A stretch of DNA of 64,000 nt, from contig CAZVDL010000002.1 of assembly GCA_964626365.1 (NCBI GenBank), positions 19,966-83,965 of the forward strand, given 5' to 3'. A program made the position numbers and the translations under genes. Shown in pieces: positions 26,870 to 56,684 of the stretch; positions within the stretch are counted from its first letter, which is position 1, and each line of letters opens with the position of its first letter. A model generated the notes under the pieces. The model did no database searches. It saw only the letters and a program-made list of their open reading frames with translations, and was not told the DNA's origin. The stretch comes from an uncultured Nitrososphaerota archaeon. GTDB lineage: Archaea; Thermoproteota; Methanomethylicia; Nezhaarchaeales; B40-G2.

Positions 26870-26968
26870 TGCGGGGGGTGGGATTTGAACCCACGCCGGC
26901 CTTCGCCAACGGATACCCCAAGCCTGTTCTTGAGTCCGCCCCCTTGGACCTGGCTCGGGAACCCCCGC
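26870..26968 (-). tRNA. tRNA-Leu (anticodon CAA) with canonical ~14-nt intron after position 37 and long variable arm
   Basis: The reverse complement gives GCGGGGG...GCGGA-CUCAAG[intron]A-UCCGU, a 14-nt variable arm, GUGGG-UUCAAAU-CCCAC, CCCCCGC and discriminator A. Confidence 0.7.
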
Positions 26969-28384: not shown

Positions 28385-28475
28385 GGCGGCCGTGGTCTAG
28401 CCTGGTCCAGGACACAGAGCGCTGAGCGTGTAGGCCTTCCACGCCTGTTACCCGGGTTCGAATCCCGGCGGCCGC
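28385..28475 (+). tRNA. tRNA-Gly (anticodon UCC) with a 16-nt non-canonical intron inside the 5' strand of the anticodon stem
   Basis: The exons give GCGGCCG UG GUCU AGCCUGGUCCA GGAC A CAG[AGCGCUGAGCGUGUAG]GC CUUCCAC GCCUG UUAC CCGGG UUCGAAU CCCGG CGGCCGC A. The acceptor and T-arm are typical of archaeal tRNA-Gly. Confidence 0.7.
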
Positions 28476-28486
28476 ACTTCCTCCCT

Positions 28487-30684: not shown

Positions 30685-31164
30685 GTGCATAGCTTCATGT
30701 CATCTAGGATAACCCCCCTCCAGGTCTACAAACTGCTTCCCGGGATCAATTGTAAGAAGTGCGGGACGACATGCATGGGTTTCGCTGTTAAGCTTATCAA
30801 TAGGCAAGCTAAGATCGAAGACTGCCCTCCGTTGATCTCAGACCCCAAGTATGCTGATAAGCTAGCCGGTCTTAGGCAGCTTTTAGCCCCTCTCCTTACA
30901 GCTACTGAGACTCTCGTAACCATAGACCTGGAGAAATGTGTAGGATGCGGCAACTGTGTCGTTGCATGTCCAGCTAATGTGGCCATAGACCCTAAGGCTG
31001 GTAGAGGGCTTAATCCGTCGTCTAGCGAGGCTCTATGGCTAGTTGAGGACGGTAAAATCAAAGTGCTTCACCTTGAGAAGTGCAGAAGATACCCACCTCA
31101 TAGAATGAACTGCAACGTCTGCGAGATGGTATGTTATAGTGGGGCAATAAAGGTGGTAGCCTGA
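30685..31164 (+). CDS. Fe-S protein: N-terminal C-x2-C-x4-C-x16-C FeS domain + 2x[4Fe-4S] ferredoxin domain
   Basis: The motif CKKCGTTCMGFAVKLINRQAKIEDC is the same module as in ORF 558..1112. It is followed by CVGCGNCVVACP and CNVCEMVC. Confidence 0.6.
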   Translation: MHSFMSSRITPLQVYKLLPGINCKKCGTTCMGFAVKLINRQAKIEDCPPLISDPKYADKLAGLRQLLAPLLTATETLVTIDLEKCVGCGNCVVACPANVAIDPKAGRGLNPSSSEALWLVEDGKIKVLHLEKCRRYPPHRMNCNVCEMVCYSGAIKVVA

Positions 31165-32435: not shown

Positions 32436-32437
32436 GG

Positions 32438-34822
32438 GTGGACTGTGTGGCTGAAGAGGCCGTCGGCAAGACCCTGGTGTTCATCTGCCACTGCGGCTCA
32501 AACATAGCGGGGGTCGTGGACGTAGCTGAGGTGGCGAGGGAACTTAAGCGTAGACATCCTGACGTGGCGGTCTACGATCATGAACACTGCTGTAGCGACG
32601 ACGGGCTGAGGAGGATAAGGGAGGCCATAGAGAAGGAGGGCGCTACAAGGCTTATCGTAGGATGTTGTACACCCTCGCTTCACGGCGAGCTGTTTAAGAG
32701 GGTAGCTGAGGAGGTAGGCCTCAATAGAGGGTTTGTGGAAATAGTCAACCTTAGAGAGCAGTGTTCATGGGTCCACTCCTACGATCCTCCTAGGGCCACG
32801 ATTAAGGCTGTCGACCTGCTCAGCATGGCTGTGGCCGCAGCCCCCCTAGCGAGGAATGCTAAGGTAGTCAAGATCCCCGTTGAGAGGGCGGTCCTCGTCA
32901 TAGGAGGAGGGGTTGCAGGGGTCACAGCAGCCTTAGCGCTGGCAGACATGGGCATCAAGGTGTACTTGGTTGAGAAGGATGGCTTCTTGGGAGGCCATAT
33001 GGCTAAGTGGGATAAAGTGTTCCCAACTCTTGACTGCAGTATCTGCGTGTTAGGTCCTCAACTCGCGAGGGCTTATAACCACCCCCTCATCACGGTGTAC
33101 ACGTTAAGTGAAGTCGTCGACGTTAAGGGGGCGCCGGGCAGCTACGTAGTCAAGGTGTTTAAGAGGGCTAGGTACGTTGACGAGAGGCTATGTAATGGTT
33201 GTAATAAGTGCCTTGAGGTTTGCCCTATTGAAGTGCCTAACGAGTACGACTATGGCATAGGCACTAGGGGGGCGATAGTTAAGCCATCGCATGAAGCAGT
33301 CCCGCCAGCGCCTTACATAGACATGGCTAAATGCATAGGGTGTATGTCCTGCCTAGGTGTATGCGACCCCAAGGCCATAAACTTCGACGACAAGGACTCG
33401 TACGTGGAGATAAAAGTAGGCGCCATAATAGTAGCTACAGGTTTCAAGCCCTTCGACCCAAGGGATCTTGACGAGTACCTCTACGGTAAATGCCTCAACG
33501 TGATCACAGGCCCTGAGTACGAGAGAATGCTTAACAACTCAGGGCCGACGAAGGGGAAGATAATTAGGCTATCGGATGGAGAGGAGCCTAAGAAAATAGC
33601 CTTCATACAGTGCGTGGGAAGTAGGTCAGACAGAATTGGAAGACCATACTGCAGTAGAGTATGCTGTATGAATGCCATTAAGCAGGCCATACAGACCAAG
33701 TTAGCATTACCGAACGCCGAGGTTACGATATTCTACACCGACATAAGAGCTTCGGGGAAAGCCTGCGAAGAGGCGTACCGAAGGGCTATGGAGATAGGGG
33801 TCCGCTTTGTGAGAGCCAGAGTGGGCCAGTTAAGGGCAGCGAGGGATGGTAAGGTTAAGGTGTTCTATGAGGACACGCTTTCATCGACAATGGTTGAGGA
33901 GGAGTTCGACTTGATCGTATTAAGTGTAGGCATGGAGGCTTCACCCGGCAATAGGGAGATCGCCAGGATGCTTGGCTTACAGCTAGGCGACTACGGCTTC
34001 TTAGCTGAGTACCACCTCAAGCTCAATCCCGCTGACACGTTCAGTAAGGGGATCTTCGTGGCGGGCGCCTGCACAGGGCCCAAGGACATAACCGAGTCGG
34101 TCATGCAGGCAGGCCTTGCAGCTGCTAGAGCTGCCGAGCTCATAGGTAAGGGCGAAGTGGAGGTCGAGGTCTACGCGCCGACCATAAACCCAGATATCTG
34201 TAAACGTTGCCTCGCCTGCGTCAGCGCTTGTCCCTTTGGTGCCCTGAGGGCCGAGAAGGGCAGGGTGATCGTCGACGAGTATGCATGCCGTGGCTGTGGA
34301 GCCTGTTATGCTGTGTGCCCCACCGGTGCCTTAACGCCACCTGGCGGGCTACTCAGCAATGAGCAAATATCGACGATGTTAAGGGATCTACTATCGGAGA
34401 AGAAGGAATATCCGCTAATAGTTGCCTTCATGTGTCAGTGGTGTGGTTACGCCGCCGCGGACAACGCGGGGATGAGTAAGATCCAGTACCCGACTAATAT
34501 AAGGATCATAAGAGTGCCATGTAGCGTTAGGTGGTCCCCCTCTCACATCCTAGAGGCCTTCAGCTTAGGGGCTGATGGCGTCCTCATTGTGGGCTGCCAC
34601 GAGCAGGACTGTCACTATAGGGTGGGCAGGGCGAAGGCCAACGAAAGGGCAAGAGCGTTGAAGGAGGTGCTTAAAGAGCTCGGGATCGATCCTCGTAGAC
34701 TTCGCATTGAAGGAGCCTCGGCCACGGAGGGGAAGAGGTTGGCCGAGCTAATAAGGGGGTTTGTGGAGGAGGTGGCCAGCTTAGGTCCAATAGGCTCAGA
34801 GGTGGCGGTGAGTGTCCAGTAA
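32438..34822 (+). CDS. hdrA: Heterodisulfide reductase subunit A (HdrA) fused to C-terminal MvhD-like domain
   Basis: It has an FAD motif VLVIGGGVAGVTAALALA, several CxxCxxCxxxCP ferredoxin motifs, and a C-terminal MvhD-like region (FMCQWCGYAAADNAG...VGCHEQDCHY). Confidence 0.8.
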   Translation: MDCVAEEAVGKTLVFICHCGSNIAGVVDVAEVARELKRRHPDVAVYDHEHCCSDDGLRRIREAIEKEGATRLIVGCCTPSLHGELFKRVAEEVGLNRGFVEIVNLREQCSWVHSYDPPRATIKAVDLLSMAVAAAPLARNAKVVKIPVERAVLVIGGGVAGVTAALALADMGIKVYLVEKDGFLGGHMAKWDKVFPTLDCSICVLGPQLARAYNHPLITVYTLSEVVDVKGAPGSYVVKVFKRARYVDERLCNGCNKCLEVCPIEVPNEYDYGIGTRGAIVKPSHEAVPPAPYIDMAKCIGCMSCLGVCDPKAINFDDKDSYVEIKVGAIIVATGFKPFDPRDLDEYLYGKCLNVITGPEYERMLNNSGPTKGKIIRLSDGEEPKKIAFIQCVGSRSDRIGRPYCSRVCCMNAIKQAIQTKLALPNAEVTIFYTDIRASGKACEEAYRRAMEIGVRFVRARVGQLRAARDGKVKVFYEDTLSSTMVEEEFDLIVLSVGMEASPGNREIARMLGLQLGDYGFLAEYHLKLNPADTFSKGIFVAGACTGPKDITESVMQAGLAAARAAELIGKGEVEVEVYAPTINPDICKRCLACVSACPFGALRAEKGRVIVDEYACRGCGACYAVCPTGALTPPGGLLSNEQISTMLRDLLSEKKEYPLIVAFMCQWCGYAAADNAGMSKIQYPTNIRIIRVPCSVRWSPSHILEAFSLGADGVLIVGCHEQDCHYRVGRAKANERARALKEVLKELGIDPRRLRIEGASATEGKRLAELIRGFVEEVASLGPIGSEVAVSVQ

Positions 34823-36128
34823 ACCATGCACTGAGCTGGTTTCAATCGAGGAGAACACGCTCACCTATAGGTGGGAGGGCCCTGTCCTAAGGAAGACGCT
34901 TACCCTCATCATCGATCGCTGCGTAGGCTGCGGTCTATGTGTAAGCCTATGCCCAACCCAGGCCATAGCCCTGGGCCCCGTCAAGGAAGTGGCGTCAGGC
35001 AGAATTGAAGCCCCTCTGATCACGATAGATGAAAGTAAATGCGTAGTCTGTCCCATATGCTCATCAGTCTGTCCAACACATGCATTGAAGGTGAACATTG
35101 AAGGTGGTAGAGAGTACCCGAGGATTAAGGGAAGTCTTTCACTTGATGAGGAAAAGTGCCTACCATGTCACCTCTGTGAAAGAGTATGTCCTAGAGAGGC
35201 TATTAAGGCTGAAGTTAAGGTAGTGAAAAAGGATGAACTAGTTAAGTACCATGAGGAGGTCGGTGAGCGGGCTGAGGGTAAAATAACGGTTAACCTTGAG
35301 AGGTGTTGTTACTGTGGGCTGTGCGAAGATCTATGTGAGGCAATCAAGATAGTATGGGTCAAGCCTGAGCCCCCGGGCTTTAAGCCAGGCCTTACAGTTC
35401 TCGTTAACGAGCAGTTATGTGACTATTGTGGGCTCTGTGAGAAGATATGCCCCGTCGATGCCATAAAGGTTGAGTGCTTCAAGGCTCCTCCAAGGGTCGT
35501 GGAGGGACCTAAAGTCGATGGGTCGATAAAGATCGATGAAGACCTCTGCGTGTATTGTGGCTTATGCGCGGCGATGTGCCCAGTGAAGGCTTTGAGCTGC
35601 GAGAAGCCCTTCAAGGGCGAGGTAGTAATGGTGAGACCTGAGAAGTGCGATCCCTCAGGATGCAAAAACTGTATCAATATATGCCCGACGAGGGCCGTTT
35701 TCGTCTCGAAGGCTAGAGGTCCCGATAAGGTGAAAGCTGCTGAGGAGGCGTGCATATTTTGTGGAGCCTGTGAAGAAGCATGCCCAGTCGAGGCGCTCAG
35801 CGTTAGAAGAAGGGAGGTGAGGGTTCAAGGTGGTGAAGAACCTTGGGAGGCGGGCTACGGTGACCTCTTTAAGAGGCTGATCGAGGGCTATAGGCCACCG
35901 AAGGAGGTGTACGCCAGGAAGGTGACAGTACCTGTCGAGGAGTACGTACCTCCTCCTCCCAGACCCATACCCCCAATACCTCCAGGCTTTAGTAAAGTCA
36001 AGGAGAGAGTTGAGGCTGCCTTAAAAGCCCTGAGCATGCCTAAGGCGAGAGTACTCCTAGAGAGGGGTGATGTTGAGAGGTTAAAGAACGAGATCAGGGG
36101 GTGGATGGAGGGGGCGCAAAGTGGCTGA
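34812..36128 (+). CDS. Polyferredoxin (about eight CxxCxxCxxxCP 4Fe-4S motifs; MvhB/FwdF-like)
   Basis: It has repeated CxxCxxCxxxCP motifs throughout and a Pro-rich C-terminal segment. Confidence 0.75.
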   Translation: MSSKPCTELVSIEENTLTYRWEGPVLRKTLTLIIDRCVGCGLCVSLCPTQAIALGPVKEVASGRIEAPLITIDESKCVVCPICSSVCPTHALKVNIEGGREYPRIKGSLSLDEEKCLPCHLCERVCPREAIKAEVKVVKKDELVKYHEEVGERAEGKITVNLERCCYCGLCEDLCEAIKIVWVKPEPPGFKPGLTVLVNEQLCDYCGLCEKICPVDAIKVECFKAPPRVVEGPKVDGSIKIDEDLCVYCGLCAAMCPVKALSCEKPFKGEVVMVRPEKCDPSGCKNCINICPTRAVFVSKARGPDKVKAAEEACIFCGACEEACPVEALSVRRREVRVQGGEEPWEAGYGDLFKRLIEGYRPPKEVYARKVTVPVEEYVPPPPRPIPPIPPGFSKVKERVEAALKALSMPKARVLLERGDVERLKNEIRGWMEGAQSG

Positions 36129-36597
36129 TGTTGAAGAAGCGGTCCAAGTAGCCCTCCTGGAAGGGCGTCGATGTATACAGTGCGGCGCATGTAGCTCAGC
36201 CTGTCCTTCAGCTAGAGCTACTATGAGCTTCAGCCCTCGCAGGATATTATTAGCTCTGTTGACGGGGAGGAGGAGCGCTGTAGGTGACGACCAGTGGCTC
36301 TGTCTACTATGCCATACCTGCGAGGCTATATGTCCAAATGAGGTGCGCATAGTGAATATCGTCGAGGCGTTGAGGAGGGCTTCTGTTAGGAAGGGCGTTG
36401 AGGAGGGGGCTCTTGACGCCTACTTTGAGGCCCTTAACAACATGTTGAGTATGGGGGTTATCGTACCCCCTACAAGTAGCGAGGCCCAGAGTTTTGGCGT
36501 CGCAAAAGGCCTAAGTCCACGTCCATTACCGGCCGAGATTAAGGCTGAGCTTGAGGAGGTTTTCGGCAAGCTTAAGGAGGTGAAGGGGGCTGGCTGA
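36121..36597 (+). CDS. hdrC: Heterodisulfide reductase subunit C-like (2x[4Fe-4S])
   Basis: It has CIQCGACSSACP and CLLCHTCEAICP, at 158 aa. Confidence 0.7.
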   Translation: MADVEEAVQVALLEGRRCIQCGACSSACPSARATMSFSPRRILLALLTGRRSAVGDDQWLCLLCHTCEAICPNEVRIVNIVEALRRASVRKGVEEGALDAYFEALNNMLSMGVIVPPTSSEAQSFGVAKGLSPRPLPAEIKAELEEVFGKLKEVKGAG

Positions 36598-37426
36598 GAA
36601 GCTAACTCTCTTTCCCGGCTGTATAGCCACCAGCATCTACCCCGGCGTGGCTTACTCATCAATTAAGGTGTTGAGGGGGCTAGGCTTTGAGGTCTCAGCT
36701 CCCGAGGTCACATTGTGCTGTGGTATGCCTTTCGAAATTGCAGGCCTACTAGATAGGGAGGGCCTTGAAAGGATCGCTATCCATAGCCTTAAGGCGGCTT
36801 CCAAGGAGGGCACCATGGTGACGCCGTGTAACGGTTGCTACAGAGCGCTCAACTTAGCGTTGAGGGATGAGGTAAAATGTCTACACGTAGCCGAGGTGCT
36901 TTGGCGCGCTAGAGACGAGCTTAAGAAGGCTGCGGGGGACGCGTTGAGGGGGGTCAAGGTAGCTGTCCACGTAGGCTGCCATTATGCTTATGCCATGAGG
37001 GAGAGGGCGCTGAAGGGGGTTGAAGGGGAGGACATACTCGAGGATATAGCTCTCTCAATGGGCGCTGACATTGTAAGCTACGACGAGAAGAAGCTATGCT
37101 GCGGAGCGACGGCGATGAAGTGGCCCCGAATCATGGAGGCCTTAAACCCTATTACTAAGCTCAAGGTGGAGAGCCTCCTTAACTCAGGAGCTGAAGCAGT
37201 ACTGGTAATGTGCACGGCATGTCAGCTGGCGATAGACAGGGCTCAATATCAAATGAAGAACCTGGGCGAGCTAGATAAAACCATACCCGTACTCCACGTG
37301 TCTCAGCTTGTAGGCTTAGCCTTAGGCCTACACCCCATAGACGACCTTGGCCTACACCTACATCTAATCCGCCCTGAAAGGATCGCCCCCTCCTCTCCTA
37401 GGGAACTCTTAAGCGATCAGCGTTAA
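36590..37426 (+). CDS. hdrB: Heterodisulfide reductase subunit B-like (two CCG cysteine-rich domains)
   Basis: The conserved N-terminal FPGC...YPG motif lies upstream of the GTG picked by the ORF track at 36647. The frame is open from 36584 with no ATG, GTG or TTG, so I place the start at CTG 36590 or another non-canonical codon. CCG and CNGC motifs follow. Confidence 0.65.
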   Translation: MAEKLTLFPGCIATSIYPGVAYSSIKVLRGLGFEVSAPEVTLCCGMPFEIAGLLDREGLERIAIHSLKAASKEGTMVTPCNGCYRALNLALRDEVKCLHVAEVLWRARDELKKAAGDALRGVKVAVHVGCHYAYAMRERALKGVEGEDILEDIALSMGADIVSYDEKKLCCGATAMKWPRIMEALNPITKLKVESLLNSGAEAVLVMCTACQLAIDRAQYQMKNLGELDKTIPVLHVSQLVGLALGLHPIDDLGLHLHLIRPERIAPSSPRELLSDQR

Positions 37427-37736
37427 CTAAGCTGAGCCATGAGGGTTTCGAGTGATAGGGGTAGAAGTTGACGCTGCTAGATTATGTAGAACGAGGAATG
37501 TATGACGTTGGTTTTTGGGTGGGCATGAACAATACAGGACAGGGGGGTTTAATCTTAGGAACTTGGCCTGGAAAAAAGCTTTGCCTCTCTTACCATAGAG
37601 GCCTACGTGTTGTAAGATTAACGGAGCTTAAATAAAATCTCTAAGGAATTAAGCGACGGTGAGGTTTAAAGATCACACTTTATCAGCCATTTATAAAGTT
37701 TAAGAGTCCCTTTGACTTAGTTAGGAAGGACCTGAG

Positions 37737-38441
37737 ATGCTTAACTGCAAAGAGGTCATAGCCTGTAAGGCCCTAGCCGACGATGCTAGAAGGGCTATAC
37801 TTGAATTATTGTTCTGCTCTGGACCCTTAAGCATCGATGAGATTGCAAGAAGTACCGGGTTGAGGAGGGTTACTGTTCAGTATCATCTCAGGATACTGGA
37901 GCAAGCAGGGCTAGTAAGGCCTATGCTTGAGGTTAAGTCGACGCCAGGAAGACCAAGGAAATTGTATGAAGTTACTAAAGAGTACTTAAATCTAAGCTTT
38001 CCTAAAAGACAGTATGAGCTCCTTCTCAAGCTCCTCATGAATAGCGTAGTGAAAAAGCGTGGCTACGACGAGCTCGTGTCCTTAATGGAGGCTGCTGGAA
38101 GGGAGCTTGGTCAAAACATACTATTTAAGGTTAAATTAAACCATAACATAACTAAATGGGATATTGACACCTTCTGCAAGTACATATTACCTGAGCTAAG
38201 AGAATTAGGCTTTAGTCCCTTAGTGACTGGTGACTGTGTTAATGAGGTAGTAGTCAAATTAACTAACTGCATTTTCAGAGAATTAATAGCTGAGTACTCT
38301 GAAGCACTATGCGTTTGGCTAAGGGCTCTTGTTTACTCTTTAATGGAACCCTTTAAAGACTTTGAAATTAAATTAGGAAAAAGCGGTGAGACCTCGGAGT
38401 TTGAGGACTGCTTAACGATTATAAAGGCCAAGGCCAAATGA
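37737..38441 (+). CDS. ArsR-family HTH transcriptional regulator with C-terminal extension
   Basis: Its N-terminal winged HTH is LSIDEIARSTGLRRVTVQYHLRILEQAGLV. It lies between the Hdr cluster and the molybdoenzyme cluster. Confidence 0.55.
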   Translation: MLNCKEVIACKALADDARRAILELLFCSGPLSIDEIARSTGLRRVTVQYHLRILEQAGLVRPMLEVKSTPGRPRKLYEVTKEYLNLSFPKRQYELLLKLLMNSVVKKRGYDELVSLMEAAGRELGQNILFKVKLNHNITKWDIDTFCKYILPELRELGFSPLVTGDCVNEVVVKLTNCIFRELIAEYSEALCVWLRALVYSLMEPFKDFEIKLGKSGETSEFEDCLTIIKAKAK

Positions 38442-38646
38442 AGCCTCAGAATTAATTGGAAGTCCGACGAGTTTTCTATAACTGATGAGGACTCATTACG
38501 CGTGGAGTTAACTATGGACTTAGGTAGTATATCGACTTGACCATAACATGTAGCTGCTCTTTCCGTCGAGAAGGCCTTGATATCTTCCGAAACTTTTAAA
38601 ACTACTATTTTTATAAACTTTTTCATCACGTGATAGACCCCCTTAG

Positions 38647-39630
38647 GTGAAGGGAATGCCTACTCCAAGTGGAGACGAGCCTGAGAGGAGGACTTTCCTT
38701 AAAGCTATCGCGGGAGGAGCGATTGCTTCACTTCTTCCTGCTTCAGAGGCGCTTCAACATAACGGGCAAGCCGACCGCTCAGACTATTACGCCATTCTAT
38801 ATGATTCAACGAAGTGCATAGGGTGTAATTCATGTGTCATTGCTTGCAAATTATGGAACGGTAAACTGGGAGGTAGATTCCCCTTTCTTGTGGAGGACTT
38901 GAAAGGTCCCCAGGAACCTCCCGAGAAGCCAAGGCCTGACGTGCATCACTTTATGGTCATAGACAGGTTTTACAATCTTAGACACTACGACGGCAGAGCG
39001 GTATTCATGAGAAGATCGTGTATGCACTGCTTGGAACCACCCTGTATGTACGTATGCCCAACCAAGGCTATATACCAGTATAAAGGCATCAACTTAACGG
39101 ACTTCTCAAGGTGCTTTGGTTGTCAATACTGCGTAGTTGCTTGTCCCTATAAAGCTAGAGCCTTCTATGACGAATGGGGTGTCCCGGTTAAATGCTGGAT
39201 GTGTTTAGATAGAGTAGAAGAAGGCCTAGCTCCAGCCTGCGTGAGTGTATGTCCAGTGCGCGCTCTAACCTTTGGCAGCCGGAATGAGATTTTAATGAAA
39301 GTACGCGAGAGGGTCAAGGAGCTTCAAGGCGAGGGCAGAAGAGTTTACGTATGGGGGGCCACTGAAGAGGAGCTAGGTTCTCAAGGTGAAATCTCTGTTA
39401 CGCGTGAGTTTGGGACTAACGTTATAGTGATATCAGACGTCCCCTTTGAAGAAGTAGATTACCCAGAGCCTGAGATGCTAGTACCAGCACCGAAAGGTTA
39501 TCCTAAAATGCTCATGGAGCGTGGGGGCTTAGCCATTTTTGGTGGTGGCGCTTTCATCTTTTTAGCCTTCGCTCTATGGCGTAGGAGTAGAATCATCAAG
39601 GCTAAGATCAAGGAAATACCGAGGGGTTAA
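38647..39630 (+). CDS. Tat-exported 4x[4Fe-4S] ferredoxin subunit (NrfC/PsrB-like) with C-terminal TM helix
   Basis: It has a twin-arginine signal ERRTFLKAIAGGAIASLL, four Cys clusters (CIGCNSCVIAC, CMHCLEPPCMYVC, CFGCQYCVVAC, CWMC...C) and a C-terminal hydrophobic helix. Confidence 0.7.
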   Translation: MKGMPTPSGDEPERRTFLKAIAGGAIASLLPASEALQHNGQADRSDYYAILYDSTKCIGCNSCVIACKLWNGKLGGRFPFLVEDLKGPQEPPEKPRPDVHHFMVIDRFYNLRHYDGRAVFMRRSCMHCLEPPCMYVCPTKAIYQYKGINLTDFSRCFGCQYCVVACPYKARAFYDEWGVPVKCWMCLDRVEEGLAPACVSVCPVRALTFGSRNEILMKVRERVKELQGEGRRVYVWGATEEELGSQGEISVTREFGTNVIVISDVPFEEVDYPEPEMLVPAPKGYPKMLMERGGLAIFGGGAFIFLAFALWRRSRIIKAKIKEIPRG

Positions 39631-39633
39631 GAA

Positions 39634-40569
39634 ATGGAGCTCCCATGGGGCCCGGTGATAGCGGCGGCACTATACTTTGGTGGCTTAGGCGGCGGCTCGT
39701 TTATAGTAGCCTCAACCACCAGCTTCATCTCAGGCGAGGAATTTAGGGAGATAATGAAGTTTGGCTCCTACATAGGCATACTGGCCACGGCATTATGTGG
39801 ATTATGTTTATCTATACATGCAGGGCACCCAGAACGCCTCCTCTTCATGTACAGTAACCCAACGTCGATGATAACCTTCGGCACATGCGTCATAACGGCT
39901 ATACTGCCTATAGGCCTAATATATGCCACTTTTCTACCACCGGACTCACTTCCGTGGCTAAAATCCCTCTTTCCATGGTCGGTGTACGTGAAGCCTAGAA
40001 AGTTATTTGAGCTCATACTGTTCATATTAGGGTCAGGGCTAGCAGGCTACACAGGTTTCGTGCTAGGTATAGCTTGGGCTGAACCTTTCTGGGAGACGCC
40101 GTTGATAACGGCGCTATTCTTTATATCAGCGGTCTCAACTGGGTTGATGGCTATAGGTCTATGCCTAGCCATACTAAGACTAGTACAGGTGACCGAGGAG
40201 TCCCAGAAGCTATTCGTGGAAATGATGCATAGGCTTGATGTAGCCGACGGTTACATGTTAGCCCTGGAAGGCGGCATAGCCTTACTATACCTATATGTGA
40301 TGCTAAACGGAACATCAGGCATAGCTAAGCAGTCGGCACAATTACTTTTGACGGGGACCTTAGCCCCGCTATTCTGGGTAGGCTTCTTCCTAATAGGTAT
40401 AATCATACCAATAATCATAGAGTTGTTCCTAGCATGGAAAGGAAGAACCGCTAAGTATCTGAAGTTCTACGCGCCGCTGATGATAGTAGCCTCGTCCTTA
40501 GTGCTGGTAGGGGCTTTCTACATGAGATACTGCTTCTTAGTAGCGGGCCAGATACCCCTTTTATCCTAA
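39634..40569 (+). CDS. NrfD/PsrC-family integral membrane quinol-interacting subunit
   Basis: It has about eight predicted TM helices, and its size and position after the Tat-FeS subunit match NrfD/PsrC. Confidence 0.7.
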   Translation: MELPWGPVIAAALYFGGLGGGSFIVASTTSFISGEEFREIMKFGSYIGILATALCGLCLSIHAGHPERLLFMYSNPTSMITFGTCVITAILPIGLIYATFLPPDSLPWLKSLFPWSVYVKPRKLFELILFILGSGLAGYTGFVLGIAWAEPFWETPLITALFFISAVSTGLMAIGLCLAILRLVQVTEESQKLFVEMMHRLDVADGYMLALEGGIALLYLYVMLNGTSGIAKQSAQLLLTGTLAPLFWVGFFLIGIIIPIIIELFLAWKGRTAKYLKFYAPLMIVASSLVLVGAFYMRYCFLVAGQIPLLS

Positions 40570-40667
40570 TCCACACCCGCCATTACTGCTCTTTCCACGA
40601 TTCAGTTCCATGAATGCTTATAAATTTAATAAAAATAGAATTTTTCTGCTAAAGGGGATGAAGAGGG

Positions 40668-41453
40668 ATGTACGCTATACTCTACGACTCCTCCCTGTGC
40701 ATAGGCTGCAGGGCCTGTCAAGTTGCCTGTAAGAGGTGGAATGGCTTAGAAGCTGACGAAACCGAGGGCATGGACTTTGGGAACCCTCAGAGCCTAACAT
40801 CCAATACTTGGAACGTAGTTAAGTACGTATGGGTCGAAGAAGAAAACGGCCCTAAACTACATTTCGTGGTTAATAGGTGTATGCATTGCTTAGAGCCTGT
40901 ATGCGAGGCAGTATGTCCCGTTCGAGCCATAGTCAAAGATAGGGAGACCGGGGCAGTAGTTACTCACCCAGAGCGCTGTGTAGGCTGTCTAGCCTGCGTT
41001 GAGGCATGTCCATTCTCTGTACCTAAGTTTGGCAGGGGTGTTGGGACTAGGAAGTGCATAATGTGCATTGATAGACTTCGCTTAGGACTTGAACCAGCGT
41101 GCGTCTCAACCTGTCCAACAGGGGCCCTCAAGTTCGGTGAGCGTAGTGAGATAATTAAGATGGCTGAGGAAAGGGCGAAGGAAATAGGCGGCTACGTGTA
41201 CGGCGTTCACGAGGCTGGAGGCACCTCGGTAATAATGGTCCTCACAGCTCCTCCTGAGAAGCTGGGGCTGCCTACACCTATGAAGGCGCCCTATGTCAAG
41301 TCTAAGGTCAGCGGGGCTGATACGCTCCTGAAGGAGGCCACGAGCATGTTGACCGGCAGTGGAGTGGGTGAGAGCCTTGTGCTTGCTCTCGGAGCCGCCA
41401 TAGTAGGGGGTGTCATAGCGAGAAGAATGAAGATCTCTAGGAAGGAGGGATGA
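40668..41453 (+). CDS. 4x[4Fe-4S] electron-transfer subunit (PsrB/DmsB-like) with C-terminal TM anchor, no signal peptide
   Basis: It has CIGCRACQVAC, CMHCLEPVCEAVCP, CVGCLACVEACP and CIMC...CVSTCP, with a hydrophobic C-terminus. Confidence 0.7.
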   Translation: MYAILYDSSLCIGCRACQVACKRWNGLEADETEGMDFGNPQSLTSNTWNVVKYVWVEEENGPKLHFVVNRCMHCLEPVCEAVCPVRAIVKDRETGAVVTHPERCVGCLACVEACPFSVPKFGRGVGTRKCIMCIDRLRLGLEPACVSTCPTGALKFGERSEIIKMAEERAKEIGGYVYGVHEAGGTSVIMVLTAPPEKLGLPTPMKAPYVKSKVSGADTLLKEATSMLTGSGVGESLVLALGAAIVGGVIARRMKISRKEG

Positions 41454-41456
41454 AGG

Positions 41457-43712
41457 ATGACTCGCTTAACTAGGAGAGAATTCCTTAAAACTATGGCTTC
41501 GGCGGGTCTATTGGCAAGCCTAGGCTTAAGTACACTTCAACCCATAGAGGTCGAGGCGCACGACTATTACTGGGACCGCCTTTATAGAAGCTCCTTAAAG
41601 TATGGTGTATGCGGGATTTGTGGCTCAGCTTGTGCCTTTAAAGCCTACGTAGAAGGTGACAGTTACCTAACCGACTTAAGAGGTAACATCAACGATTTAG
41701 AGAGTCAAGGCAAATTATGTGCTAAAGGTAACGCTGGCATATGGTACGCATACGACCCAGATAGGCTCAAGTACCCGTTAAAGAGGACAAACCCCGAGAA
41801 AGGCATCGATGTAGATCCGAAGTGGGTTAGAATATCTTGGAAGGAAGCCTTAGATTTAGTAGCCAACAAGTTCAAGGAAATTAAGGAGAAATACGGCGGT
41901 CATACGATAATATTCATGGGACACCCACCATATAAGCCCTGGCTTGTGAGGTTAGCACATGCCCTTGGCAGCCCTAATTACATAAGTCACCTAGATACTT
42001 GTGTAATAACCAATGTCTTAGTACGCAAATATACGATGTTCACGCCGACGTTTGTTCATGATGTAAAGAATGCTCGGTACATCCTGTGCTTTGGCTGGGA
42101 TCAACCAGCCAAAGGCAAGATCGTCTATACCCATCAATTCAGCGAGGCTGTTAAGCAAGGAGCTAAAATAGTGGTGTTAAACCCGCTATACACGACGACG
42201 GTGGCTAAAGCGACAGAGTGGATACCTATTAAGCCAGGTACAGATCTCGCCTTCGCCTTAGCTATGATGAACGTCATAATCAATGAAGGGCTGTACGATG
42301 AGGACTACGTAGCTAAGTACACTAACTTCAAGGATTATGAGGATAAGATAGTATCTTGGGTCAAACCGTATACGCCTGAGTGGGCTGAAGGTATCACTGA
42401 GGTGCCGGCCGAAACTATAAGGAAGGTAGCAAGAGAGTTTGCGACTATCAAACCCTCCATGGCCTTAACTCATAAGAGAGACGCGGCGGGTCCCAATTAC
42501 ACTAATAGCTGGAAGCTAGCCCACGCGATAGTTATACTAAACGCTTTAGTGGGTGCCATCGATAATGTTGGAGGAGTGATACTCCCTAGGACCTTTAAAG
42601 TACCTGACGTAAATAAGATCTATCCTCCTCCACCCCCTCCAAGCGTCAAGGAGAAGGCTGACGGTAAACATCTGCTTCCTCTCCTCGACAAGCTGGGCCA
42701 TGGCATATTCTCAACGTTGGTGGAAAACATCTTAAGGGAGAAGCCCTACCCTGTTAAAGCCGCGCTAATATGCAACTATAACGTACTAGCCTTCCCTAAC
42801 CCTAAGAGGGCCGTAGAAGCCTTTAAGAAGCTAGAGTTCATAGCGGTCGTCGACATATTACCTAGCGAAATGGCCTTACTTGCAGACGTGGTTTTACCCG
42901 ACACGACCTACTGGGAGACTTCAGGTTTCTCTCCACGTAAGTATAATGCTCTTTACCCGCAAATAGCGGTGAAGGACGCTGTCATCAAGCCTATGTACGA
43001 TGTCAAGAGCCACAACTGGATCATTTACCAGATAGGCAAGAGAGTGGCTCCAGAGTACTTTAACTTTAGCTTAAGCGAGCTAAAGAAGGAGATGTTAAGG
43101 AGAGCGGGTATAGCTAACTCTTTCGATGAATTAAAGGAGAAAGCGGTAGACGGTATATACACTCTTCCTGGGGCCTCCTTCAAACCCTTAGAGAAGCTTG
43201 AAGCCTTCGCTAAGCAGGGGAAGAAGATACAGATATATGCTGAGATCTTCGAGAAGTACGGCTATGATCCGCTACCTTCATGGGAGCCTAAGAGGGAAGA
43301 GAAAAGCCTGGAATACCCATACTACTTAATAGTGACTAGGTCGGCTGTGCATAGGCATGGTAAGACGACCAACATACCTTGGCTGCATGAGATATGCCCT
43401 GAAAACTGCGTCTTAATACATCCAGAGGAAGCTGAGAGGTTGGGCATCAAAGACATGGACTGGGTCTACGTGGAGTCACGATACGGAAGGATTAAGATTA
43501 AGGCGCTACGCTGGCCTGGAATCAGGAAAGATTGCGTATGCGTCCCCCACGGCTTTGGACACTGGTCAAGGTTCCTCAGGGTAGCTTACGGATGGGGGGC
43601 TAACGACGGCGACCTCATACCCACTCAAACCATTGAGGATGTGTTGAAGAGGAGAGATCCAACAGCCAACGCGTGTATGTCAGATGTCTGCGTTAAGGTG
43701 TATAAAGCCTAA
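41457..43712 (+). CDS. Tat-exported molybdopterin (bis-MGD) oxidoreductase catalytic subunit, Psr/Phs/Sre-like
   Basis: It has a twin-arginine signal TRREFLKTMASAGLLASLGL and an N-terminal 4Fe-4S motif CGICGSACAF....C. At 751 aa its size fits the polysulfide/thiosulfate reductase group. Confidence 0.75.
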   Translation: MTRLTRREFLKTMASAGLLASLGLSTLQPIEVEAHDYYWDRLYRSSLKYGVCGICGSACAFKAYVEGDSYLTDLRGNINDLESQGKLCAKGNAGIWYAYDPDRLKYPLKRTNPEKGIDVDPKWVRISWKEALDLVANKFKEIKEKYGGHTIIFMGHPPYKPWLVRLAHALGSPNYISHLDTCVITNVLVRKYTMFTPTFVHDVKNARYILCFGWDQPAKGKIVYTHQFSEAVKQGAKIVVLNPLYTTTVAKATEWIPIKPGTDLAFALAMMNVIINEGLYDEDYVAKYTNFKDYEDKIVSWVKPYTPEWAEGITEVPAETIRKVAREFATIKPSMALTHKRDAAGPNYTNSWKLAHAIVILNALVGAIDNVGGVILPRTFKVPDVNKIYPPPPPPSVKEKADGKHLLPLLDKLGHGIFSTLVENILREKPYPVKAALICNYNVLAFPNPKRAVEAFKKLEFIAVVDILPSEMALLADVVLPDTTYWETSGFSPRKYNALYPQIAVKDAVIKPMYDVKSHNWIIYQIGKRVAPEYFNFSLSELKKEMLRRAGIANSFDELKEKAVDGIYTLPGASFKPLEKLEAFAKQGKKIQIYAEIFEKYGYDPLPSWEPKREEKSLEYPYYLIVTRSAVHRHGKTTNIPWLHEICPENCVLIHPEEAERLGIKDMDWVYVESRYGRIKIKALRWPGIRKDCVCVPHGFGHWSRFLRVAYGWGANDGDLIPTQTIEDVLKRRDPTANACMSDVCVKVYKA

Positions 43713-43729
43713 AAACTCTCTTTTTTACC

Positions 43730-44377
43730 ATGAACTCTCCATCAATCTTCCTAACTCTATACGAATTCCTCTCAGCCTTCTTCCATTATCCACGGAGGAG
43801 GCTTGTTAAGTTATTGAGGGAGGGGTTTATTGAGGAGTTAGAGGATCGCGTAAAATCACTAACCGATTTTCCTGACGAATATAAGAAGGGTTTTTCCCTG
43901 ATTAAGGAGTATGTAGAGTCTACTAGGGAAAGAAGTCTTGAAGACGTACATAGGGAATTGGCAGTTGAGTATACCAGGCTTTTCATAAACGCCTTTCCCA
44001 TGGTCCCCTGTCCCCCATACGAGTCATTCTACGTTAACGGTGGTCTTTTGGCGCAACGGTCTGCTGCGAAGGTTCTAGAAATCTATGCTAAGGTGGGATA
44101 CCGTTTAAGGGACAAGTTTAAGGATCTACCAGATCACATTGCTGTTGAATTAGAGTTCATGTCTATACTTCATAGGATGAAGCTTAAACACGAACGTAAA
44201 GAAGAACTCAACGAGATCAAGCATTTATTCCTCAAGGAACATCTACTTAAGTGGGCGCCGTCCTTCTGCGACAACATTGAGAGAAACGCTAAGCTCACCT
44301 TCTATAAAGGACTATCGTACATATTAAGGGGCCTTTTGACCATGGAAGCTAAGAATTTAATGGAGTGTTCTTCTTGA
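43730..44377 (+). CDS. TorD/DmsD-family redox-enzyme maturation chaperone
   Basis: Its ~215 aa size, its position immediately after the catalytic subunit, and TorD-like helical sequence support the call. Confidence 0.55.
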   Translation: MNSPSIFLTLYEFLSAFFHYPRRRLVKLLREGFIEELEDRVKSLTDFPDEYKKGFSLIKEYVESTRERSLEDVHRELAVEYTRLFINAFPMVPCPPYESFYVNGGLLAQRSAAKVLEIYAKVGYRLRDKFKDLPDHIAVELEFMSILHRMKLKHERKEELNEIKHLFLKEHLLKWAPSFCDNIERNAKLTFYKGLSYILRGLLTMEAKNLMECSS

Positions 44378-44430
44378 CAGTTGATGATTTTTCAGGTGAA
44401 CCCAAGTTCACACACGATCCTCCCCCTTTA

Positions 44431-45066
44431 ATGAATGAAAAAACATTAATAAGTAGGGATAGATTGAAGGGGATTAAATATAGAGATCTTGTTCTATTGC
44501 GAAGTATAAAGGAGATCAAGGAGGCCTCATTAAAGCTAAACCTCCCTAGCGAAGTAATTAAAGAAGCTATTGAATGTTTAAATAAGGCCTTAGATCTTGG
44601 CTTAACAAGAGATCTAGGACATATTTGTCTTAAGGCTTCGTGCCTATACTTAGCGGCGCGTCTATTCAACGTACCCTTGACTTTAGACCGCGTATTAGCT
44701 AACTTTAAATGTTGTTGTAAGAGACCTTATAGAGCTCTCTTGAAATTAACGAGAGAGCTTAAATTTAAATTGCAGCCTTTAAAACCCGAGGCGCTATTAA
44801 CTAAGGTCATTTATGAGCTTAACTTGCCTGCTGAGCTTGAGGATAAAGCGTTCCAAGAAATTAGGAGACTCAAACGCGTTTTGAGAGGCAAAAGCCCAAA
44901 GACCATAACCGCGGTTGCTATCGTTAAAGCTGCGCGTGAATTGGGGCTTAGCTTGGTTGAACGTAAGGTAGCAGAAACTATTGGTATAACGCCCACAACG
45001 CTGCGGGCAGCTAAGAAGACGTTGATGGACAGGGAGAAGGAAAGTTACGTAGAGACTATTGATTAA
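44431..45066 (+). CDS. TFB-like protein consisting only of the cyclin-repeat core (no Zn-ribbon/B-reader)
   Basis: It has two cyclin-like repeats with the TFIIB-repeat signature (..LGLTRDLGHICLKASCLYLAARLFNVPLTLDRV.. and ..ITAVAIVKAARELGLSLVERKVAETIGITPTTLRAAKK). The ORF track starts at GTG 44365, but an in-frame ATG at 44431 is the more likely start. Confidence 0.5.
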   Translation: MNEKTLISRDRLKGIKYRDLVLLRSIKEIKEASLKLNLPSEVIKEAIECLNKALDLGLTRDLGHICLKASCLYLAARLFNVPLTLDRVLANFKCCCKRPYRALLKLTRELKFKLQPLKPEALLTKVIYELNLPAELEDKAFQEIRRLKRVLRGKSPKTITAVAIVKAARELGLSLVERKVAETIGITPTTLRAAKKTLMDREKESYVETID

Positions 45067-45303
45067 ATATATAAGGGGATTTCAAGGTTTAGCCTAGAAG
45101 CCTTACACTCCAGGAATGATTAATCGCGAAGCCTGCAGACATACAAGGTACATGTAAATTCATAGGCTTATTTAAAGAAGAGCCTTCAGCACGAAGCGTA
45201 CCAAGACGAGTCTCTATCTGTGTTGATGGCTGCCTTATGGGTGCTATTAGGGTGGTGGTCTTTAAGGCTGGAAGCTTGGTGACTAACGTTTAAGGGGTCA
45301 GCC

Positions 45304-46323
45304 TTGAGGCTTGGCTTCCTTTATTCTCATGAATTCGGTGAGAGGGTTATCGGCAACCTGATAAACCACTCCACTTTCTGTCGTTCATGCGACCTCGCGT
45401 GTGAACATTGCCGCGTAAGCTATGGGTCCTATGCATCCGATATTCAATGGGTATGTGAGCTTCCACGTGAGCTGCCTAGCTTCATAGATGACCCTCAAGA
45501 GTACCTGCCTGATGCGGTACCTGATGTGGATGTGCTCGTTGTAATTGGTCTACATCCTGACCTCTTAGCTGGCCTCCCGAGCTTAGTTAAGGAGTCTAAC
45601 GTGAAAGCTATCTTAGTGCCTCTTGAGGATAGAGAATGGTGTCCTCCTGGTTTGCGTACTCAGGTGGCTGAGGAGTTAAGTGAGGCGGGCATAGAAGTCG
45701 TCTTCCCTAAACCTTTTTGTTCACTTACTTTAACCGGTAATAGGTACATAGATCTCTTCGTAGAGAGGTACAGGATAGGCCGGCCCCTGATTAAAGTTGA
45801 GGTTGAAGACGAAGTAATTAGAAGCGCGCATGTAGTGAGGAGCGCGCCCTGTGGGGCTACTTGGTATATTGCTAGGCAGGTTTCAGGTAAGACCATAAAG
45901 GGGGTGTGGGAGATCGTATCTAAGGCGCATCACTCTTATCCATGCACTGCTAGCATGCAGCCAGACCCTGAGATTGGTGATACCATTCTTCATAGAGGAG
46001 GCTACATGGCTAGAGAAGCTGTAAGGGACGCGATCATCATGGCAGGGTACGAGCCTTTGGAGCTTGATGCCAAGGCTATAGGAGTCAAAGTAGAGGTGGA
46101 AGGTTTAGGTTCAGTTAACCTTGAGGTTTTTCCATGGCTTGAGGACTCCTTCGGCATTATCGAGCGCGCCCTGTGGGTAATCGCGAAGAAAACCGTTAAT
46201 CCTGCTCACTGTAAGGCATTAGTTAGGAGGACCGGTAAAGTAGAGAGTTTAGCTGGTGGATTGATGAAATGGTTAGCTAAAGGAGACGAGATACTCGTCA
46301 GACCCTCATTTTACCGTAAGTAG
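45304..46323 (+). CDS. Conserved hypothetical protein with N-terminal Cys cluster (CRSCDLACEHC)
   Basis: A 339-aa ORF. Any family assignment (possibly DUF166-like) is unverified. Confidence 0.3.
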   Translation: MRLGFLYSHEFGERVIGNLINHSTFCRSCDLACEHCRVSYGSYASDIQWVCELPRELPSFIDDPQEYLPDAVPDVDVLVVIGLHPDLLAGLPSLVKESNVKAILVPLEDREWCPPGLRTQVAEELSEAGIEVVFPKPFCSLTLTGNRYIDLFVERYRIGRPLIKVEVEDEVIRSAHVVRSAPCGATWYIARQVSGKTIKGVWEIVSKAHHSYPCTASMQPDPEIGDTILHRGGYMAREAVRDAIIMAGYEPLELDAKAIGVKVEVEGLGSVNLEVFPWLEDSFGIIERALWVIAKKTVNPAHCKALVRRTGKVESLAGGLMKWLAKGDEILVRPSFYRK

Positions 46324-46397
46324 CTAGGCTTAAAGTGTTTAGAACCTGACGGAAAGTTTATGTAATCAGCTACTTTATCATCTTTCAAGTGATCTAA

Positions 46398-46649
46398 GTG
46401 AAACTGGAGGAATACTTAGAGAGATGGTTTCAGGATGAGTGTTTAGAGGTCGGCTTATACTTAGCTATGGCTAAGAAAGCCGACGAGGAAGGGTGCCCTG
46501 AGATAGCCGCTCTCTTTAGGAAGATCGCTCGGGATGAAGCACGGCATGCCGCGATAGCCATAGAGCTGGCTGGGAAAGTAGTCTCAACGAAAGAGAACCT
46601 AGAGAGGATGATTGAAGGTGAAGGAAAAAAGCCTTTGAAATCAGGATGA
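46398..46649 (+). CDS. Small ferritin-like/rubrerythrin-family fragment-sized protein
   Basis: It has one E...DEARH diiron-like half-site and is only 83 aa. Confidence 0.35.
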   Translation: MKLEEYLERWFQDECLEVGLYLAMAKKADEEGCPEIAALFRKIARDEARHAAIAIELAGKVVSTKENLERMIEGEGKKPLKSG

Positions 46650-46994: not shown

Positions 46995-47408
46995 TTACAT
47001 GAAGGCTCTAAGCCACTTGTAAGCTATAAGCACGAAGAGTATTAAGAAACCCAACGTGACTATTAACGCTGGTAGTGAACCTTGGTTGGACGTGAAGCCT
47101 ATTATGAGGGGGAAGGGCCATATGAACACCGCTGAGCCAGAACTTACCTGTGTCTCAAGCAAGCCGGGTAAGGCTGTTATTAATATCATCCCTGATATTA
47201 TCATTGCTAGCCCTAAGGCCAGCATTATCTTCGTCATTAGGGGCGGCGTGAACGTAGAGGTTATCTGTTCTCTTCTAACGAGGGAGGTCTCGTAGCACGG
47301 CTTACATAACCAGGTGGCTGGGTCAAAGCATTCGGGGCAGACACGCCTAGAACAGCGTCTACATACGTAGGCGGCATCCTCTCTTCCACATACCTCACAA
47401 CGAGCCAT
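46995..47408 (-). CDS. Zinc-ribbon (CEVCG...CRRCSRRVCPEC...CKPC) membrane protein
   Basis: A 137-aa ORF with an N-terminal Cys-rich zinc ribbon and two C-terminal TM helices. It lies between the two 54-bp repeat copies. Confidence 0.4.
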   Translation of the reverse strand: MARCEVCGREDAAYVCRRCSRRVCPECFDPATWLCKPCYETSLVRREQITSTFTPPLMTKIMLALGLAMIISGMILITALPGLLETQVSSGSAVFIWPFPLIIGFTSNQGSLPALIVTLGFLILFVLIAYKWLRAFM

Positions 47409-52857: not shown

Positions 52858-52969
52858 GCCGGGGTCGCCTAGCCTGGTCTAGGGCGCCGGACTCATAATC
52901 AGATGAGGCTGAGGCCAGGCGCCTGCATGGGGTATCCGGTCATCGCGGGTTCGAATCCCGCCCCCGGCA
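52858..52969 (+). tRNA. tRNA-Met (anticodon CAU, elongator-type; tRNA-Ile2 not excluded) with ~36-nt canonical intron
   Basis: The sequence reads GCCGGGG UC GCCU AGCCUGGUCUA GGGC G CCGGA CUCAUA[intron]A UCCGG UCAUC GCGGG UUCGAAU CCCGC CCCCGGC A. Confidence 0.75.
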
Positions 52970-55967: not shown

Positions 55968-56684
55968 TCACTCTCTCCCTCTCGTAGAGAGTATTCGTAG
56001 CCACGGATTGTCCTTAAAGAAGGAGGGCAGCTCACTTGGCGGGGCCTCTTCTCTTAGCGGGGTAGCCTCCACCATGGGTTTATGCTCTCTTCTCATCTCC
56101 GACAGCATGCTTTCAAGGGACGCGATCTTATCCAGTATGGAGGTTAATGATGAGAGCAGCCTCCTTAAGCCGTCCTCTAAGTTGGCTCTAAGCTCCGCGA
56201 CCTCACCCTCAAGCCTATTGACCCTGAAGGCCAGCTCCTCATCTACGGGCTTAGCCAGCGTTTCATGCCCTGTTTCTAGCCTTCTTACCTTCTCCTCTAG
56301 AGCGCTAAGTTGTCTTCTCAGCTCCTCGAGCCCCCTTAAGTTGAGGGTCATTCTTCTCTTAGCAGGGGTGGCTTCGAGGACCTGGCCATCCACTATTAAC
56401 ATGCCCACTCCAACCTCGTGGAGTATAGAGGCGTCGACGACGGTGGCTATAGGCTTACTGACAGCTACGTAGGCTAAATCGTAGCCGTCTGTGGATGAAG
56501 CCCTTAACAGTCTTCTTAAAGCCTCTCCACGGGCTTTTAGGGCCTCTTCGTCGATTAAGTAGACAGCCACCCTTCCGCTAGGCCCTTTAAAGCTTAAGCT
56601 GGGACCCTGAGGAGGTGGGGGCTCCTCCACGTATCCCTTAAGTTGAAAGTATCTTCTGACGGCTTCAGCTATCGCTCTAGTCAT
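55968..56684 (-). CDS. Coiled-coil protein immediately downstream of crenactin (candidate arcadin-2-like crenactin partner)
   Basis: An N-terminal alpha/beta segment is followed by a long heptad-repeat region. It overlaps the crenactin start by 8 nt. The arcadin-2 assignment is positional inference only. Confidence 0.4.
   Translation of the reverse strand: MTRAIAEAVRRYFQLKGYVEEPPPPQGPSLSFKGPSGRVAVYLIDEEALKARGEALRRLLRASSTDGYDLAYVAVSKPIATVVDASILHEVGVGMLIVDGQVLEATPAKRRMTLNLRGLEELRRQLSALEEKVRRLETGHETLAKPVDEELAFRVNRLEGEVAELRANLEDGLRRLLSSLTSILDKIASLESMLSEMRREHKPMVEATPLREEAPPSELPSFFKDNPWLRILSTRGRE

Follow-up and report, generated by a model that had tools for sequence, protein, structure and literature searches.

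A TFB-like protein made up of the cyclin-repeat core, encoded at the end of an archaeal molybdoenzyme operon

A 64,000-nucleotide stretch of DNA from an uncultured Nitrososphaerota archaeon (contig CAZVDL010000002.1; the whole stretch is called the window below) carries a gene for a shortened relative of the archaeal transcription factor TFB. This gene, TFBcore, lies at 44374..45066 on the + strand and encodes 230 amino acids from a TTG start. It is the last of seven co-oriented genes that form a respiratory cassette. In TFB, the core of cyclin repeats and a helix-turn-helix (HTH) binds the TATA-binding protein (TBP) and the B recognition element (BRE), and the Zn-ribbon recruits RNA polymerase. 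Paralogues of TFB have mostly been treated as alternative factors for productive initiation. TFBcore has the core and lacks the ribbon, and it is conserved under purifying selection behind the same chaperone gene in every lineage where it was found.

The gene, its product and its cassette

An earlier reading of the window, made from sequence only, had reported an open reading frame (ORF) at 44365-45066 (+). The ORF listing confirms it, with a 233-amino-acid translation from GTG 44365. Its start can be refined to TTG 44374, which is favoured by independent gene calls on three contigs and yields the protein P0001; GTG 44365 and ATG 44431 are alternatives. The TTG start is also backed by a relative at locus L022, whose N-terminus reads 'MSVDD...LMNE' against 'MTVDD...LMNE' in the window protein. 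The start codon overlaps the stop codon of the preceding TorD-like chaperone gene as TTGA.

The TFBcore frame has a stop at 44350-44352, upstream of the start, and the other frame upstream encodes the C-terminus of the TorD-like protein (PF02613). Because this DNA is occupied by the TorD-like gene and holds an in-frame stop, it cannot also encode a Zn-ribbon, B-reader or B-linker for TFBcore. An in-frame extension encoding a Zn-ribbon, which the sequence-only reading had raised against itself, is thus ruled out. A hidden N-terminus reached by frameshift, read-through or sequencing error is likewise out, as the upstream frames belong to the TorD gene. How far apart the two genes lie varies by locus (-4, 3, 4, 6 and 13 nt), so there is no conserved frameshift site. 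A phmmer search of all six-frame ORFs found no second or canonical TFB in the 64-kb window.

A search with the Pfam TFIIB-repeat profile (PF00382), which had been proposed as a check, gives a significant match in two stretches of TFBcore (E=1.4e-15; 57.5 bits, cut-off 23.6). The NCBIfam model for full-length TFB (NF001658) aligns only at profile positions 124-304 of 312 and scores 71 bits, where its cut-off is 384. The nearest solved chains are those of the Pyrococcus woesei TFB core, 1AIS_B and 1D3U_B, with E=1.3e-12 from the single sequence and 5e-17 from a clade profile. An AlphaFold model built on 69 homologues has a mean predicted local distance difference test (pLDDT) score of 90.4 and places ten helices as 2 x 5 in two repeats. 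Foldseek aligns this model to 1D3U_B with a template modelling (TM) score of 0.82, a root-mean-square deviation (rmsd) of 2.0 A and 29% identity, and to TFB and TFIIB cores generally with TM 0.7-0.82. Cyclins give TM 0.35-0.38 and rmsd ~16 A, and the geometry of a cyclin/CDK partner is not matched.

The protein divides into a leader and two repeats. The N-terminal leader (residues 1-35; 44374..44478, +) is poorly conserved, predicted to be disordered and without Cys pairs. It is modelled as low-confidence coil over residues 1-30, with pLDDT ~53 for residues 1-20 and 65 for residues 21-30. It stands in place of the ~100-residue Zn-ribbon, B-reader and B-linker of TFB. The ORF begins in this non-conserved, disordered segment, which is not recognizable as the linker in which it had been thought to start. 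Cyclin repeat 1 (residues 36-129; 44479..44760, +) has predicted helices at residues 36-54, 59-74, 78-97, 104-110 and 118-129. It keeps R96, the equivalent of human TFIIB R169, has lost the GR loop and carries a clade-specific 'CCCKRPY' loop. Cyclin repeat 2 (residues 138-228; 44785..45057, +) is defined by AlphaFold helices and by Pfam, whose best stretch here covers residues 138-218 of the 233-amino-acid translation (~135-215 in P0001 numbering). The repeat ends in the C-terminal HTH (residues 196-228; 44959-45057, +), with the recognition helix T-P-T-T-L-R-A-A-K-K.

Pfam finds no Zn-ribbon (PF08271, Zn_Ribbon_TF) in TFBcore, which has no Cys before residue 68, and the ribbon is missing in all five members of the clade. 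Neither a B-reader nor a B-linker was found in TFBcore, where the leader is disordered and non-conserved and the profile match begins at position 124. There is also no match to the REMP domain (PF02613) in TFBcore; only the upstream gene matches it. TFBcore is therefore no general TFB, lacking ribbon, reader and linker, and it is a TFIIB cyclin-repeat core. On this point Pfam, NCBIfam, AlphaFold and Foldseek all agree with the original call of two TFIIB repeats without the three N-terminal modules.

The cassette opens with an ArsR-type HTH regulator (37737..38441, +), which is 79% identical in L006 and has a C-terminal domain of ~140 residues without a family match. Next come a 4Fe-4S (FeS) subunit with a twin-arginine motif (38656..39630, +; ATG 38656, although the ORF listing begins at GTG 38647), an NrfD/PsrC-type membrane anchor (39634..40569, +; PF03916, E=4.4e-37) and a 4Fe-4S ferredoxin-type subunit recognized by Pfam and NCBIfam (40668..41453, +). 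The catalytic subunit is a 751-amino-acid, Psr/Phs-like molybdopterin oxidoreductase with a twin-arginine translocation (Tat) signal (41457..43712, +), assigned by the Pfam domains Molybdopterin, Molydop_binding and Fe4S4. Its top NCBIfam model is PhsA (1.4e-125, under the cut-off of that model), and it is 84-86% identical in L006 and L009. The sixth gene encodes a TorD/NarJ-family (REMP) chaperone (43730..44377, +; PF02613, E=2.1e-31), which matches TorD and DMSO-reductase type II chaperone models and whose stop overlaps the TFBcore start. Gene junctions and the ORF listing agree with the earlier description of TFBcore as overlapping the TorD-like gene, co-oriented with the cluster and placed at the operon end. 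The GC content of the cassette (window 37500-45100) is 0.39-0.48, compared to ~0.54 in the flanks.

A promoter footprint, AAACTTTTAAAACTA..ATTTTTATA..CTTTTTCATCACGT, lies upstream of the structural genes of the cassette at 38590..38631 (+). It contains two TATA-like A/T blocks, followed downstream by CTTTTTCATCACGT. The block shares 38 of its 42 nt with L006:3665-3707, and the rest of the spacer is unalignable. No repeats of the promoter motifs above chance occur elsewhere in the window, where the motif is unique. The block probably also contains an operator for the ArsR-type regulator.

Two neighbouring gene groups flank the cassette. An Hdr/Flp-like cluster directly upstream (30685-37426, +) encodes an FAD/FeS protein with an FlpD domain, a polyferredoxin and a CCG-domain protein. 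Downstream, at 45304-46649 (+), are a DUF166 gene (DfsP-like, 339 amino acids) and an 83-amino-acid rubrerythrin-domain gene, found in this arrangement in the window only.

Relatives, gene linkage and selection

An exhaustive HMMER scan of 1.84 billion cluster representatives returned only two close clusters, with 58% and 50% identity to TFBcore (217 and 211 amino acids), below which scores drop sharply to ordinary TFBs at ~30% identity. The closest relative, P0002, is 62% identical and is annotated as coming from a 'Thermoprotei archaeon' metagenome-assembled genome (MAG). Including the window copy and a partial gene at L022, the TFBcore clade has five members with 43-86% identity, all of them metagenomic. 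The same short architecture is thus found in four other independent lineages and assemblies. No clade member occurs in the species-representative genomes of GTDB or in the viral contigs of IMG/VR. A scan of metagenome contigs recovered the known members again, together with two loci at 31% identity (L012 and L013) that are probably ordinary TFBs. The GTDB species representatives also hold no near relative of the catalytic subunit, with bacterial matches only, at 26-34%.

All five members lie 3-13 nt behind a TorD-like gene or overlap it by 4 nt, and this gene follows the same 751-amino-acid Psr/Phs-like enzyme wherever the contig reaches that far. The molybdoenzyme linkage, which the sequence-only reading had suggested looking for in relatives, is kept in every known member of the clade. 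In contrast, the gene after TFBcore varies: DUF166 in the window, another ORF in L004-L006 and a convergent RFC gene in L009. The ORF in L004-L006 carries a precomputed PF27217 (AF_0155) annotation that was not recovered when the L006 copy was scanned with Pfam. What lies upstream of the cassette is not the same in the window and L006 either. Since the flanks vary on both sides, the segment from the ArsR-type gene to TFBcore behaves as one unit. Its low GC content and its differing neighbourhoods in the window, L006 and L009 suggest that the cassette is horizontally mobile.

The nearest outgroup TorD is 41% identical and belongs to an operon that is joined to NiFe-hydrogenase genes and has no TFBcore. 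This operon (L019:7759-16006; also L020 and L021) encodes a 740-amino-acid molybdoenzyme, TorD, the small and large NiFe-hydrogenase subunits, a HycI protease, an FeS subunit and NrfD. It looks like an H2:sulfur-compound oxidoreductase super-operon.

Comparisons between the window and the other loci are saturated at synonymous sites for every gene, including that of the enzyme (proportion of synonymous differences, pS, ~0.8-0.9). This saturation indicates that the lineages are old and that the linkage is no by-product of recent ancestry. The TFBcore ORF remains intact despite it. For the closest pair, L004 and L006, the ratio of nonsynonymous to synonymous rates (dN/dS) is 0.118 for TFBcore, 0.179 for TorD and 0.051 for the enzyme. 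With a ratio of 0.12, TFBcore is functional and under purifying selection.

Contact residues and possible functions

The residues by which TFB cores contact DNA and TBP were compared between the TFBcore clade and 67 TFBs that bear a Zn-ribbon, using human TFIIB numbering from an alignment to the full-length human chain. V283 and R286 of human TFIIB presumably serve in BRE recognition, and G153 and R154 in the downstream contact. The clade keeps the hydrophobic core and the signature positions L-x-L-P, A-x-x-Y and G-x-x-P. The equivalent of R286 (R211) is invariant in the four members that cover it (L022 ends earlier) and in the 69-sequence family alignment. The equivalents of K152, R185, K189, R193 and R290 are mostly still basic, that of K189 being K or R. 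Overall charge is retained as well, with an isoelectric point (pI) of 9.5-10.4 and a net charge of +11 to +17, where the canonical-core medians are 9.9 and +14. The equivalent of R169 (R96) is invariant in the clade; in human TFIIB, the R169E change abolishes binding to TBP-TATA, and K188E adds to the TBP-binding defect (PMC6004067).

Clade members contain five to seven cysteines, compared to 0-8 in canonical cores, among them the conserved, clade-specific C68, C85 and CCC at 113-115. Sequence neither supports nor refutes an Fe-S, metal or redox site made from these residues.

Our tentative preference, held at somewhat less than an even chance, is that TFBcore acts as a natural non-productive decoy TFB that modulates promoters. 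The protein is an N-terminally truncated TFB paralogue that would be co-transcribed with the cassette and is probably translationally coupled to it, such that expression of the cassette would lead to its build-up. Through its basic cyclin/HTH surface, TFBcore may then occupy TBP-promoter complexes or the DNA beside the TATA box. As it could not bring in RNA polymerase, TFBcore would act as a competitor of full-length TFB, and initiation would be reduced or re-tuned. The simplest target would be the promoter of its own cassette, creating negative feedback, or else the promoters of competing pathways. TFBcore departs from canonical TFB in its recognition helix and in the repeat 1 loop that faces DNA, so its promoter preference is expected to differ from that of the general TFB of the host. 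Binding to TBP and DNA, competition and the sign of regulation are what we infer for this protein.

Precedent for a decoy comes from engineered core-only TFBs, which bind TBP-DNA and prevent the recruitment of RNA polymerase. The TFBcore construct of Methanocaldococcus jannaschii binds TBP-DNA, is transcriptionally inactive and out-competes full-length TFB in vitro (PMC10516927). The Sulfolobus construct TFB2deltaN is dominant negative in vivo (bioRxiv 10.64898/2026.09.06.749720). Since core-only constructs are inactive and out-compete the complete factor, a natural non-productive TFB is the simplest reading of the window protein.

Several observations weigh against a decoy. In all members, 'RGRS' has become 'RD(L/V/I)G', which removes the equivalents of G153 and R154 in the GR loop; 'PRT' has become 'P(L/I)T'; the 'TQ' motif is (V/H/P)(E/A); T or A stands in for V283; and the recognition helix has x-A in place of 'NR'. 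At the position of K188, one member has Gly and the others Cys. The E of the canonical recognition helix, TEVTxRNRYKE, is also replaced in the clade. Measured against the window, dN is 0.33-0.48 for TFBcore and 0.40-0.47 for TorD, and 0.09-0.11 for the enzyme and 0.13 for the ArsR-type regulator. TFBcore thus evolves at an amino-acid rate like that of TorD, 3-4x that of the enzyme and the regulator, which is unexpected for a partner of slowly evolving TBP. In addition, the cassette already carries a dedicated HTH regulator of the ArsR type.

The functional claims of the sequence-only reading are accordingly upheld in part. That the core still binds TBP and the BRE/TATA region is suggested by the conserved R169 and R286 equivalents and by the charge, but the GR loop, K188, V283, TQ and NR are replaced. 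That it would serve as a competitive regulator without recruiting RNA polymerase has precedent in the M. jannaschii and Sulfolobus constructs, but the fast, TorD-like evolution of TFBcore makes a non-transcriptional role possible. The partly lost contacts and this rate together keep two other explanations alive.

The first of these, which we consider unlikely, takes TFBcore away from transcription altogether. The cyclin-fold protein would have been co-opted as an accessory for maturation or assembly that works through protein-protein contacts with the TorD-like chaperone, with the Tat signal peptide or with the apo-enzyme. Its gene always lies directly after the TorD-like gene or overlaps it and has a Shine-Dalgarno-like motif, which suggests coupled, stoichiometric synthesis, and its substitution rate tracks that of TorD and not that of the regulator or the enzyme. 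Many canonical motifs for contacting DNA and TBP are gone, and the nearest outgroup operon has TorD without TFBcore, as if the latter were an add-on to one enzyme lineage. However, TFBcore is still strongly basic, as TFB cores that bind DNA typically are, and its Arg residues in the HTH and at the TBP contact do not vary within the clade. In the predicted structure the repeats are arranged as in the DNA- and TBP-bound form of TFB (TM 0.82) and not as in the apo form. A search of the literature gave no TFIIB-like protein tied to molybdoenzyme maturation.

Alternatively, TFBcore could be a positive or promoter-specific co-factor at the cassette promoter, maybe together with the ArsR-type regulator, that stabilizes TBP or hands over to full-length TFB. 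Such a protein would activate or license a horizontally mobile cassette, with logic like that of Sulfolobus TFB3, which acts in trans with TFB1. The varied genomic contexts of the cassette, its GC content below that of the flanks and its conserved promoter core (38/42 nt, two TATA-like A/T blocks) are in keeping with this idea, and the altered recognition helix suggests a non-standard site. TFB3 itself is an example of a truncated TFB paralogue with an activating role in trans (PMC7289017, PMC6101594). Against these points, whenever it has been tested, a TBP-bound core sits where full-length TFB would and keeps it out (PMC10516927; 10.64898/2026.09.06.749720), no mechanism for a hand-over is known, and the gene sits at the end of the operon that it would have to switch on. 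On balance, we consider such a co-factor role unlikely too.

The non-ATG start and variable N-terminus might suggest that a full-length tfb has decayed here or was cut short by faulty annotation or assembly, but this is effectively excluded by the same architecture in five independent lineages and several assemblies, by the dN/dS of 0.12, by a confident and complete structural model, and by upstream DNA that is a conserved TorD gene.

Related proteins, host and implications

The decoy proposed here has several partial counterparts. Like TFBcore, the P. woesei TFBc of 1AIS and 1D3U has two cyclin repeats of five helices each, closes with an HTH and is similarly charged. However, TFBc is a laboratory fragment of a ~300-residue protein, whereas the window protein is an entire natural gene product. 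Identity between TFBcore and any TFB is only ~30%, and the GR loop, TQ and the V, N and R positions of the recognition helix are replaced relative to TFBc. M. jannaschii TFBcore and Sulfolobus acidocaldarius TFB2deltaN have the same domain content as the window protein, cyclin folds only. These constructs are artificial and their contacts are intact, whereas the natural protein is fast-evolving, has partly changed contacts and is known from sequence.

Sulfolobus TFB3 is likewise a shortened TFB paralogue outside the canonical type, and it serves specific regulation and not general initiation (PMC6101594, PMC7289017). Its truncation is the opposite one: PMC6101594 describes a Zn-ribbon that is kept, an absent C-terminal HTH domain and a coiled coil. 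Pfam and AlphaFold place the domain content of TFBcore as the mirror image of this arrangement, as the sequence-only reading had proposed. TFB3 activates in trans with TFB1 and is not part of a metabolic operon, whereas TFBcore is operon-embedded. TFS4 of Saccharolobus solfataricus is a paralogue of another basal factor that has turned inhibitor (PMC5715097), with a likeness to TFBcore that is functional only, as fold and target are unrelated. Bacterial anti-sigma factors also inhibit initiation via the basal machinery; the analogy is conceptual, and again folds and targets are unrelated.

TFBcore is not alone in its architecture. Among the 150 representative matches listed, 24 of the 148 more distant ones are no longer than 240 amino acids, have a Met start and lack CxxC...CxxC, although a good number of them may be fragments. 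The architecture is not unique to the TFBcore clade, as there is at least one other core-only TFB family and probably a second. The linkage to TorD and a molybdoenzyme is specific to this clade.

The proteins P0009 (205 amino acids) and P0034 (195 amino acids) are core-only, TFB-like and 47% identical to each other. On both contigs (L024:1977-3581 and L026:1-1325), their genes lie directly after a full-length tfb (Zn_Ribbon_TF + TFIIB) and before a cytidylyltransferase-like gene, so that complete factor and core form a conserved tandem. A third short-only group (P0021, P0048, P0054, P0051 and P0024) has members of ~190-216 amino acids (L027:3388-4017, L025:858-1466), and P0021 is encoded near Cdc6/Orc1 and CedA1 genes. 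Like TFBcore, the P0009/P0034 and P0021/P0048/P0054 families comprise ~190-215-residue proteins with TFIIB repeats only, encoded by complete genes inside contigs. They share ~27-32% identity with the TFBcore clade, and P0009/P0034 sit beside a full-length tfb and not in a respiratory operon. The literature searched characterizes none of these other core-only families, nor any natural core-only TFB, and describes no TFIIB-like gene in a molybdoenzyme operon. PMC6101594 speaks of 'truncated TFB' in Crenarchaeota, in three classes that are not specified and that may overlap with the core-only architecture.

Other features of the window bear on its host. A crenactin gene at 56677-57948 (-; NCBIfam E=2e-170) has its best named relatives, at 69-74% identity, in MAGs of Geothermarchaeota and Bathyarchaeota that come from hydrothermal sediments. 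This makes the host an uncultured TACK archaeon and not one of the cultured Thermoproteales, the order that the sequence-only reading had implied. A 137-amino-acid protein encoded at 46995-47408 (-) combines an N-terminal B-box/HIT-like, Cys-rich zinc finger with hydrophobic segments that look membrane-spanning, and it is not TFB-like. Over-long tRNA matches at 26870-26968 (-), 28386-28477 (+) and 52858-52969 (+) are probably intron-containing archaeal tRNAs; ARAGORN assigns an odd four-base anticodon to the one at 28386-28477 (+).

To block archaeal initiation, experimenters routinely use engineered TFB cores. It is conceivable, though doubtful, that nature uses the same device widely. Core-only TFB paralogues would then be a general, overlooked class of archaeal 'anti-TFB' decoys that sit on TBP-promoter complexes and block or re-program initiation, with the TFBcore clade as an operon-embedded example and P0009 and P0034 as further ones. 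Such a class would be an archaeal counterpart of anti-sigma logic. Should TFBcore itself prove to be a decoy, archaea would also regulate genes by decoying the TBP-promoter platform, and energy metabolism would be tied directly to the basal machinery. If it works with TorD instead, this would be the first case in which enzyme maturation has taken on a TFIIB-fold protein.

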